A stretch of 64,000 nucleotides of DNA from the NCBI RefSeq assembly GCF_057098645.1, contig NZ_CM169472.1. One strand, 5' to 3'. The position numbers are program-made. How positions within the stretch are numbered: the stretch's first letter is position 1; every line of letters starts with the position of its first letter. This document shows, piece after piece, positions 47,001 to 50,000 of this stretch.

Positions 47001-50000
47001 ATTGAGCCGCCTTTTAATCAACAAGTTACCGCCGTAACCGCTCCGGCTTCTTCCAGTGGTACGTTATTTTCGCCTTCTCCCGATACAGTTCAACGCGGCG
47101 ATTGTAGGCCAGCATTTCCAGAACGCGGATCCGTATGTCGCGCATATCCGCATCATTAAGCTGGATACCATCACGGCGCATCACCTCAGCAACAACACGC
47201 GCATAATTTTCGGCTGTCACGCTGTCCGGCTGCGTGGTCTGTTCGTCAGCCTGCTGGCTGATTCCAGAGACGCGGCGGATTAATCGCAGTATTTCTGCTT
47301 CTGTCATGCTGCTGACCTCATTACACCCCGCTAAATTCTTCCAGTTTCTGGCGGTGGCTGTCGCTTATATCAAAAGCAAAATCCTCATGCTCTGCCTGGA
47401 ATGTACCAAACGCCATCAGCGCCGCCACGCTCGGGTCTATCTTGTTCGGTGATTTTTTCTTGTTCGGCTTGATATTGGCGTTCGCGTCACTCTGCATCAC
47501 GACGTTACTCATCGACCAGGACAACACCGGATCGCTACGATGCACAATCACCCTGCGGTTAACAAAAACTTCGAACGATTTCGCCGCCGGACTGAATCTG
47601 AGGTAGGTTTGCGGGAACGGCTCCACCTCAAAGCCTGCCCCCTGTAATTGCGTCCTGAGATGCGTGGCGTTCCACGTATCAAAGCCCACCAGCCTGATAT
47701 TAAATTTCTCCGCATCCTGCATGATGTCATCTCTGATCCGGTCGTAATCAATGCAGTCACCTGGCGTTGTGCGTATCCAGCCCGCTTTAGCCCACTGGCG
47801 ATAGACAGCGCGGTTTTTATTGGCGGGGTTCTGTAGCTGGAACTCCGGCAGATAATGACGGGAAACCAGCATGATATTTTTACCGACCGGAAAGGCATAG
47901 CACACGCTGGAAATATCGCTGGTTGATGATAAGTCCAGCCCCGCGTAACACTCCTGCCCGTGTAAATCTTCCTCCGTGAACGTTCCGGCACACTCAGCCC
48001 ATGCGCCGTTACCCATCCACGGGGTAGCCCCCTGGCACCAGATATTAAATCGCTTTGTCATCATCTCCACCCATTGCGACGGAATACCCCGCGCTTTCTG
48101 GATGGTTGAGGCCAGTTTTTCACGATCCACGGAAACATCGATGTTAGGGTTAGCCTTTATCCACATCGCCGGATCATCAACCTCGTTTTCGTCGTCCAGT
48201 TCGTAAATCAGTACAAAAATTGAATCGTTGACCTCTTCGCCGTCCAGGATCTGGCAGCAATAATCATAGTGCTGCTTACAGGCTGAAACGACGTTACTGC
48301 CCGATGTGGTAATGGCAAATAACAGCCCTTCGGGACGTGCGCCCATCCCCAGCTCAAGCGCGGAATAAACGCCGTTATCGGGGTGTAGGTGGTATTCGTC
48401 CACGATGGAAAGGCTTGGGTTTGTGCCCTCGATGGTTGCCGCTTTTGCTGCCAGCGGCTTTAACAGGCTGTTGCTTTTCGGGTGCATCACCTTGTGGGCC
48501 TGAATATTCACCCGCCTGCGTAACGGTCGGGATAAAAGGCACATCTGACGCGCATCATCAAAAACGATCCGCGCCTGGTCACGGCTCACCGCTGCGGTGT
48601 AAATATCCTGCTGCCCGTTCTCCATAATCAGAAACCAGTTAGCCAGAATCGCGGCGGTCGTGGATTTCGCATTTTTGCGCGGCACTTCGATAAAGGCGCT
48701 CGTGTATTTGCGCCGTCCGGTGGCCTTAACCTTAAAGCCGAGGATGCACGCAAAGGCGAACTGCTGCCACGGCTCCAGCTCAATGGGTCTGCCACGCATC
48801 GGTCCTTTTACGTGCGGGCACACCCTGGAAAAGGCAATAAACCGCTCCACAACCTCACGATCGAACGTGTAAAGGGGGCTTTTAAGGTCCGAAAAGTACC
48901 GTTTAACAGCCTGTTTTAACCGTTTACAGGCCGGAATTTTGCCCGTTTTTACGTCTTCTGCGTACTTATTCCAGGCGGTCAAGCTCGTCCTCTTCTTCTG
49001 TTTCCGGTGGATTTTTACGGCGGCTTATCGGGTCAAAACCGAGCAAGGAGGCCATTTTTATCATCACTCTTTCAGCGTCGGATTTTGCGCTTAATGCGGG
49101 GTTTCTGCTCTCGCCGCCCTGACTGTTAACAATGCTGAACCCGCGCGCCGCAAGGTCTGCAACGGCTTTCCGGTAAATGGAGTAGTTGACGCAATACAGT
49201 TCCAGATTGCTCCAGTCGGCGGGGGTCAGGTCTCCCCGTTCCGCAAGCTGCCGCGATTTTTCCCGCCACTGCTTCACGGCGATATCATCCAGGTAGGCGG
49301 GGGCTTTCGGTGGTCTTGCCATGCTTATTTTTCGTCAGATTATTTTTCAAAAAATTCCCGTGCATAAAAATTTGAGGAGGCGTTCGGTGCCCGGCGGGGT
49401 CGGGTTTGTCCTGAAAACGCCCCCCACCCCGTCATACAGCCTCATCAGCGATTGCGGAAACATTCCATAACCTCGCGGTCACGGTCGGTTAATCGCTTCG
49501 CTGTGATGCGTTCTGCGCGTCCTGACGCTTTATCTTTATGCCCTGTTTCCTGTGTCTTCCATGCGTCACGCTGCCTTATAAGTCCACGGATAAGGCGGTT
49601 TTGTTCCCGCTCATTCATCAGCGTCATACATCCAGTTATTGCGGTTAGCGGCCCGTTCTTCCTCTTCATGAAATCCACCTGCGGCACGCTTGCTTTTTGT
49701 TGCCGGATCAAGCCATTTCGTTTTCTGGTTATGACACGCCTGGCACAATGGTTGATGGTTCCATTCGGGCCAGAAGAGAACATCATCACCGCCATTAATC
49801 GGGATAATGTGATCCACCACCACGGCGGGCGTATATATCCCCTTCTCAAGGCATCGCACGCATAACGGGTTTTTACTCAGATACATGGCGCGGTATTTGT
49901 CCCACTGTCTGGAGTACCCACGCGCGCGGCGGTGTCCTCGTCTGGCATCCTCTGCACGCCATGCCGCCCGCCTGTGCTCCTCACACTTGCCGGACTTCAC

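Follow-up and report, generated by a model that had tools for sequence, protein, structure and literature searches.

The window analysed here is a stretch of 64,000 nt from contig NZ_CM169472.1 (RefSeq assembly GCF_057098645.1), in which a capsid-forming phage-inducible chromosomal island (cf-PICI), a relative of EcCIEDL933 with all its genes on the minus strand, adjoins phoQ. Between its HNH endonuclease gene and the small terminase gene terS lie 288 bp (49323-49610), which a sequence-only reading had described as a non-coding gap and as a candidate cohesive-end (cos) packaging site. Both flanking genes end exactly where that reading had placed them, but 174 of the 288 bp (60%) belong to a gene, so that the interval is not a non-coding gap and only 49323-49444 (122 bp) is intergenic. 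The spacer very probably holds the site at which the DNA is cut for packaging. The best joint explanation, in which good confidence can be placed, is that 49323-49444 represents the cos region of this cf-PICI and 49445-49618 a small accessory gene. The genes concerned, in the order of transcription, are:

49611-50051, minus strand: HNH endonuclease, packaging accessory nuclease (Pfam HNH, 1.7e-08; phrog_144, 1.1e-44)
49445-49618, minus strand: small conserved gene, 57 aa (phrog_3173, E 7.5e-37, profile positions 1-57 of 57)
48966-49322, minus strand: terS, small terminase, P27 family (Pfam Terminase_4, 1.3e-23; TIGR01558, 1.9e-16)
47321-48982, minus strand: terL, large terminase (Pfam TerL_ATPase, 1.3e-25; TerL_nuclease, 4.4e-50)

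Once the small gene is counted, the other intergenic distances of this operon range from -46 to +39, and the 122-bp remainder is its sole large intergenic gap. Its composition is unusual. The segment 49372-49431 features 70% GC and belongs to the top 0.55% of 60-nt windows in the island, while 49323-49371, with 26.5% GC, falls into the lowest 0.04% of 49-nt windows. The GC-rich strings quoted earlier were found on the plus strand, with GCCCGGCGGGGTCGGGTTTGTCCTG at 49389-49413 and CCCCCCACCCCG at 49420-49431.

For the analysis of conservation, the region upstream of terS was gathered from 80 IMG/VR loci and from 80 loci in species-representative genomes (TerS identity 64-85%), the genera including Klebsiella, Aeromonas, Pectobacterium, Citrobacter, Erwinia, Xenorhabdus, Photorhabdus, Proteus, Yersinia, Hafnia, Gilliamella and several Pasteurellaceae. 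The majority fraction, i.e., the share carrying the majority base, was taken over one sequence per genus (25 genera), with the codon positions 1, 2 and 3 of terS (0.85, 0.89 and 0.60) serving as yardstick. Counting C49376 as +1 on the minus strand, the spacer is divided as follows:

49420-49430, minus strand: G-run GGGGTGGGGGG, -54 to -44; majority fraction 0.84
49405-49419, minus strand: moderately conserved segment CGTTTTCAGGACAAA; 0.76, with GACAAA at about 0.9
49388-49404, minus strand: variable segment including the GC-rich motif flagged earlier (49390-49405); 0.59
49377-49386: predicted 10-nt cohesive end (cosN), CGAACGCCTC on the minus strand and GAGGCGTTCG on the plus strand; 0.86
49363-49376, minus strand: +1 to +14 of the predicted left end, CTCAAATTTTTATG; 0.95, the most conserved block of the spacer
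49348-49362, minus strand: predicted TerS site, +15 to +29, CACGGGAATTTTTTG, a GC element followed by an A/T tract; 0.86
49339-49347, minus strand: A-rich end of the cos core, +30 to +38, AAAAATAAT; 0.87
49323-49338, minus strand: terS leader and ribosome-binding region, poorly conserved; 0.63

Thus, a non-coding core of about 50 bp is constrained as strongly as protein-coding positions, since its fractions of 0.86-0.95 compare with those of the first and second codon positions of terS. Judged from the aligned relatives, this core appears nearly invariant across three orders of Gammaproteobacteria, comprising cf-PICIs of Enterobacterales, Aeromonas and Pasteurellaceae. In the window a T-tract occupies +7 to +11. 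The GC-rich string GCCCGGCGGGGTCGGG, which had been pointed out in the sequence-only reading, is not supported as the place of the cut: it lies in the most variable part of the spacer and evolves like a neutral site (0.59 against 0.60 at third codon positions of terS), and both the predicted cohesive end and the conserved block lie on its terS side. The cut is most likely located about 10-25 bases away from this motif. The segment 49388-49404, which differs between E. coli alleles as well as between genera, is predicted to be the last duplex DNA of the right end; allelic variation affects the overhang as well as the 17 bp immediately before it. Further upstream, the G-run makes up an imperfect inverted repeat together with the C-rich cohesive end, and RNAalifold pairs both runs without covariation. 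This G-run may represent an upstream, right-end cos element comparable to cosQ of lambda and acting on the termination side.

Single relatives offered side observations on these elements. About 105-130 nt upstream of terS in Xenorhabdus hominickii, the G-run is expanded to a tandem array (GTAGGGGTAGGGGTAGGGGTAGGGGTATC), which suggests slippage at this element. The genome of Pasteurellaceae bacterium Macca carries seven terS relatives, two of them with the cos core and the other five with unrelated upstream sequence lacking it. In addition, the minus-strand sequence CCTCAAATTTTTA at 49363-49378, across the predicted cut, resembles the IHF consensus (WATCAANNNNTTR), and the Pasteurellaceae versions (AATCAAATTTTTA) match this consensus fully.

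The position of the cut was derived from the genome ends of relatives. The metagenomic viral contig IMGVR_UViG_3300022664_000095 from IMG/VR (15,518 nt) is a complete genome of cf-PICI size and a close relative of the element in the window. It begins with CTCAAATTTTTACGCACGGTG (first bases also given as CTCAAATTTTTACGCACGG and CTCAAATTTTT), with the ATG of terS at position 61, and ends with ...GGGGTGGGGGAGGTTTTCAGGACAAAACCCAAGCCGCAAGGCAC (last bases also given as GGTTTTCAGGACAAAACCCAAGCCGCAAGGCAC). An alignment to the copies integrated in E. coli SCU-125 and K. pneumoniae leaves exactly 10 columns between its two ends, which read CACCCGCCCC in these copies and CGAACGCCTC in the window; the gap equals the length of the cohesive ends of SfI and HK97. 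The homolog of the variable segment is kept as right-end sequence, after which the contig stops. The second line of evidence is vB_KppS-Ant (LR881103.1), a linear 16,548-bp record of a cf-PICI-type genome, which goes back to a lysate grown on K. pneumoniae DSM 30104, sequenced with Nextera XT and assembled with SPAdes, shares >99% identity with the genome of this host and for which MF417951 was named as a relative (PMC8006926). Owing to this origin and identity, the record is regarded as the packaged form of KpCIDSM30104, whose packaged DNA reportedly yielded a unit-length band and concatemers through cohesive ends (10.1101/2025.02.11.637232). It starts 22 nt before terS and ends with ...GGTTTTCAGGAC, after the GGAC of the 49405-49419 homolog. 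The integrated copy in ATCC 13883, the same strain as DSM 30104 and the type strain of K. pneumoniae, holds 69 further nt between these two ends, centred on the same site; the loss of a few tens of bases per physical end would be expected of a tagmentation library. Moreover, an E. coli draft contig with a spacer identical to that of the window ends with ...GCCGGGCACC, 1 nt into the 10-mer, which is weak evidence when taken alone. The cos site expected between HNH and terS is supported in so far as ends derived from packaged DNA of close relatives fall into the homologous spacer.

Some of the records consulted call for a remark. The IMG/VR scans returned at least 120 rows, mostly integrated copies, and several apparent ends were boundaries of stored stretches. 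LR881103.1 is labelled as an Escherichia phage and its paper describes a filamentous ssDNA prophage, while gene content and host strain identify it as packaged cf-PICI KpCIDSM30104; for the 765-aa open reading frame (ORF) that follows its terL, the annotation as tape measure protein is questionable in a satellite without a tail. Klebsiella phage P12620-1 was rejected as end evidence, being uninformative with fragments of terS and terL next to unrelated upstream DNA. Its 106-kb record (PQ569648.1) contains at 90644-92645 a homolog of cf-PICI terS (80% identity) and one of terL, and the boundary to the unrelated DNA coincides exactly with the start codon of terS; the record has the look of a chimera or of one including host or satellite DNA.

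According to the proposed mechanism, TerS would bind the site of GC element and T-tract at 49348-49362, about 15-29 bp inside the left end, and position TerL and HNH for staggered nicks 10 nt apart. The terS-sense strand would be nicked at 49376/49377 and its complement at about 49386/49387, leaving the 10-nt 3' cohesive end CGAACGCCTC. Packaging would then proceed from C49376 through terS and terL and round the concatemer to the next cos, where the G-run, 44-54 bp upstream of the cut, would be the last conserved element entering the capsid. For the copy in the window, we infer the cut coordinates, with the cohesive end at 49377-49386, as well as the 3' polarity of the overhang and the binding of TerS at +15 to +29. 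Cleavage would depend on TerS, TerL and HNH, going by the literature on the packaging module of EcCIEDL933, in which mutation of each gene abolished transfer, except for one hypothetical gene whose mutation led to a severe reduction (10.1101/2022.09.08.507074).

A bolder extension is conceivable, albeit unlikely: a shared TerS code would let any cf-PICI terminase initiate on the DNA of any other, while the variable segment, the G-run and the PHROG 3173 protein, which is restricted to certain lineages, would tune termination or exclusivity, with this protein acting as a cos-binding accessory factor and possibly corresponding to gene 1792 of EcCIEDL933.

Several points weigh against the assignment of cos and its cut. 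All terminus evidence stems from relatives with a TerS identity of 81-85%. Among the matches listed, the exact 10-nt gap occurs in one contig only, and a metagenome scan for contigs starting with CTCAAATTTTT yielded 41 further copies, none of them ending at the site. The Ant record brackets the site rather than pinpointing it, because 69 and not 10 nt are missing. The 3' polarity of the overhang is presumed from the absent bases and from the analogy to HK97 and SfI. The 10-mer of the window departs from the family consensus CNCCCGCCCC. Finally, no similarity was detectable between the TerS of HK97 and the cf-PICI TerS profile; the analogy for +15 to +29 is thus positional only.

Among the alternatives, the one that survives best also places cos in the spacer and differs in the cut, which would lie within the GC-rich motif (about 49390-49405) instead of the C-run 49377-49386. 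This is improbable. The GACC..GCCG of the motif loosely resembles GACCGCCGCC just before the cut of HK97, and the motif falls inside the 69 nt absent from the Ant record; yet the homolog of the motif is kept in the metagenomic contig as duplex DNA of the right end, beyond which the contig stops, the segment varies as much as neutral sites do, and the cohesive end of SfI aligns to the C-run and not to the GC-rich motif. A cut placed inside the motif from the loose GACC alignment to HK97 was given up in favour of the contig-end evidence, as was a cut placed from the SfI alignment alone, which was 3 nt off.

Still less credit is due to the view that the spacer is mainly a transcriptional or RNA element, e.g., an internal promoter, a terminator or a structured leader of terS-terL. 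Its position between two genes of a single operon and the ability of G-run and C-run to pair (8 pairs), followed by a U-rich stretch, would fit such a function. Against this, folding was no better than that of shuffled sequence (minimum free energy z = -0.06), the covariation term was -0.2 with almost no compensatory change, the spacer matched no Rfam family, neither promoter nor terminator was detected on the coding strand, a loop of 37 nt would be atypical of a terminator, and the genome ends of relatives map to the spacer. Headful (pac) packaging with a mere pac recognition site in the spacer is hardly credible: pac systems, too, typically have TerS recognition sites near terS, but packaged cf-PICI DNA was reported as a unit-length band concatemerising via cohesive ends (10.1101/2025.02.11.637232), the related viral contig features unique ends 10 nt apart, and an HNH gene beside a P27-family terminase is a signature of HK97-type cos systems.

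Turning from the cos region to its neighbour, 49445-49618 reads as a small accessory gene of PHROG 3173 with unassigned function. The ORF 49445-49849 had been doubted from the sequence, which was justified for its TTG-started 134-aa reading, whereas its 3' third is a real gene. The match to phrog_3173 begins at residue 4 and covers the entire profile; RefSeq/PGAP lists the same protein in the identical copy as WP_000174068.1 with a start three codons upstream at 49627 (60 aa), while it matched no Pfam or NCBIfam family. With its ATG at 49618, the gene shares 8 nt with the end of HNH in the arrangement ATGAATGA, and its frame ends at 49445; it is regarded as translationally coupled to HNH. Of 80 close relatives, 76 keep the ORF intact (pN/pS about 0.43). 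Homologs could also be recognised in 18 of 80 loci of other genera, with a conserved helix at the N-terminus and an RDRE-x-x-E-x-FRNR motif at the C-terminus in common. In the AlphaFold2 model (pLDDT 77), two helices are joined by a variable basic linker. Among proteins of phage records, the sole match at E <= 1e-3 came from an unannotated contig, ECO95. The gene is considered accessory because it is absent from relatives in Xenorhabdus, Photorhabdus and Pasteurellaceae; where it is missing, 133-478 nt separate the end of the HNH match from the terS match downstream, the distance being about 135-160 nt in Xenorhabdus and Photorhabdus but 175-478 nt in Pasteurellaceae and Gilliamella. The hypothetical gene 1792 of EcCIEDL933, the loss of which severely reduces transfer, could be this 57-aa ORF or the 93-aa ORF after terL. 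In Kosakonia cowanii, a homolog of the small ORF lacks the usual stop and reads through the entire cos spacer (100 aa), which may reflect a true variant or stem from a sequencing error.

The island starts directly after purB, phoP and phoQ (42689-46359). Besides the genes given above, it carries:

52504-53706, minus strand: major capsid protein
51892-52464, minus strand: prohead protease
50679-51890, minus strand: portal
50344-50724, minus strand: head completion
50051-50347, minus strand: head-tail connector
47026-47307, minus strand: 93-aa ORF directly after terL (phrog_1561, function unknown, E 2.3e-55)

cf-PICIs, with EcCIEDL933 as the prototype, have been defined as elements of about 15 kb that hold capsid, protease, portal, connectors, HNH, terS, terL and replication genes and are devoid of tail and lysis genes (10.1101/2022.09.08.507074). 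By its gene set, as typed with Pfam and by the RefSeq annotation of an identical region, the island of the window is such a cf-PICI. This identical region lies beside phoQ in E. coli AR_0013 with the same annotation and continues with PerC, SSB, primase and Icd-like genes. The gap sequence was present in 533 of 5,426 complete E. coli genomes, on the chromosome every time, and copies in O157:H7 are 99.3% identical to the window allele over the gap. An HNH homolog immediately precedes terS in 78 of 80 related loci. An ORF at 60130-61326 is presumed to encode the integrase, and no convincing direct repeat that could represent att sites was found flanking the island. At 46965-47048, in the interval from phoQ to the 93-aa ORF, a direct repeat of 32 nt occurs twice (72% identity, 52 nt apart); it probably corresponds to the repeats at 46.9 kb mentioned in the sequence-only reading, and no matching copy was found at the integrase end of the island. 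Furthermore, an iteron-like unit of about 45 nt, ATGCCAAA(C/T)NGTGATCGATT, was observed three times as tandem direct repeats at 59044-59158; these are adjoining a long minus-strand ORF at 57387-59033 (548 aa), and may represent the replication origin of the island.

A cos site between hnh and terS is the expectation of an HK97-type system, and cos packaging by cf-PICIs is already known; accordingly, an expected feature of a known system is described here and no new mechanism. The position and sequence of a cf-PICI cos were not found in the literature open to searching and may be published elsewhere. What is added is a prediction, to the base, of the cut and of the elements around it, evidence for a near-invariant core, the shift of the likely cut away from the flagged motif and the recognition of the small gene, by which the annotation of the interval is corrected. 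cf-PICIs are abundant and cross genera using borrowed phage tails, and their exclusive self-packaging depends on cos. The prediction offers targets for mutagenesis, TerS binding assays and cos-plasmid transduction (49377-49386, 49348-49362 and 49420-49430) as well as a sequence signature for spotting cf-PICI genome ends in viromes.

The comparison with HK97-like cos sites and known cf-PICIs, which the sequence-only reading had suggested, showed a layout matching HK97 and SfV/SfI, with the site directly upstream of terS and downstream of the HNH gene in HK97, SfV and the window alike. EcCIEDL933 and KpCIDSM30104 belong to the same element family and share gene order and packaging genes with the window. 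For SfI, a phage with a homologous TerS, run-off sequencing of virion DNA against the prophage revealed a 10-nt gap, 5'-TGCCCGCCCC-3' (PMC3636060), and the core CCCGCCCC is common to this sequence and to the cf-PICI consensus 10-mer C(G/A)CCCGCCCC. The SfV record holds the 10-mer of SfI 50 nt before terS, followed by ATCGTTTTTTTATACCCGCGAAAAATG and preceded by GGGGAGGGGCGGG, which ends at -42. As in the window, an HNH gene precedes cos in SfV; the G-run spans -54 to -42, and behind a T-tract, a GC element plus A-tract occupies +15 to +25 (CCCGCGAAAAA). Its TerS belongs to Terminase_4 and is 36% identical to that of the window (E 4e-21). SfI and SfV differ from the window in the 10-mer, which is CGAACGCCTC in the latter, in an unrelated sequence between G-run and cut, in about 45 extra N-terminal residues of the SfV TerS and in the lack of the small gene that the window carries between HNH and cos.

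In HK97, the 10-nt 3' overhang CGCCGCCAAA is found at the record end, and binding to the minimal TerS site, mapped by experiment to +15 to +29, CTAACCCGATTTTTT, depends on the A-tract as well as on a C:G pair at position 21 (PMC11331095, PMC9410871). This site is likewise composed of a GC element and an A/T tract, in the same register and with the same composition as 49348-49362. The order of HNH (gp74), small ORF, cos, terS (gp1), with gp2 as TerL, corresponds to that of the window, and a G9 run at -51 to -43 to the G-run at -54 to -44. As differences, the overhang has another sequence and Pfam does not place gp1 in Terminase_4. The TerS of the window had no relative in PDB by sequence. The cos of lambda (cosQ-cosN-cosB) is tripartite as well, with a region for terminase binding on the terS side of its nicking site and a further element upstream on the other side. 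Nevertheless, lambda differs in its gpNu1-type TerS with R sites and IHF, in the absence of HNH and in its 12-nt 5' overhang, whereas the window features a P27/Terminase_4 TerS and an HNH gene, and the 10 nt are absent rather than duplicated at the assembled ends. The window, SfV/SfI and HK97 have the G-run, the C-rich overhang and the GC-plus-A/T element in the same register, and thus one shared architecture.

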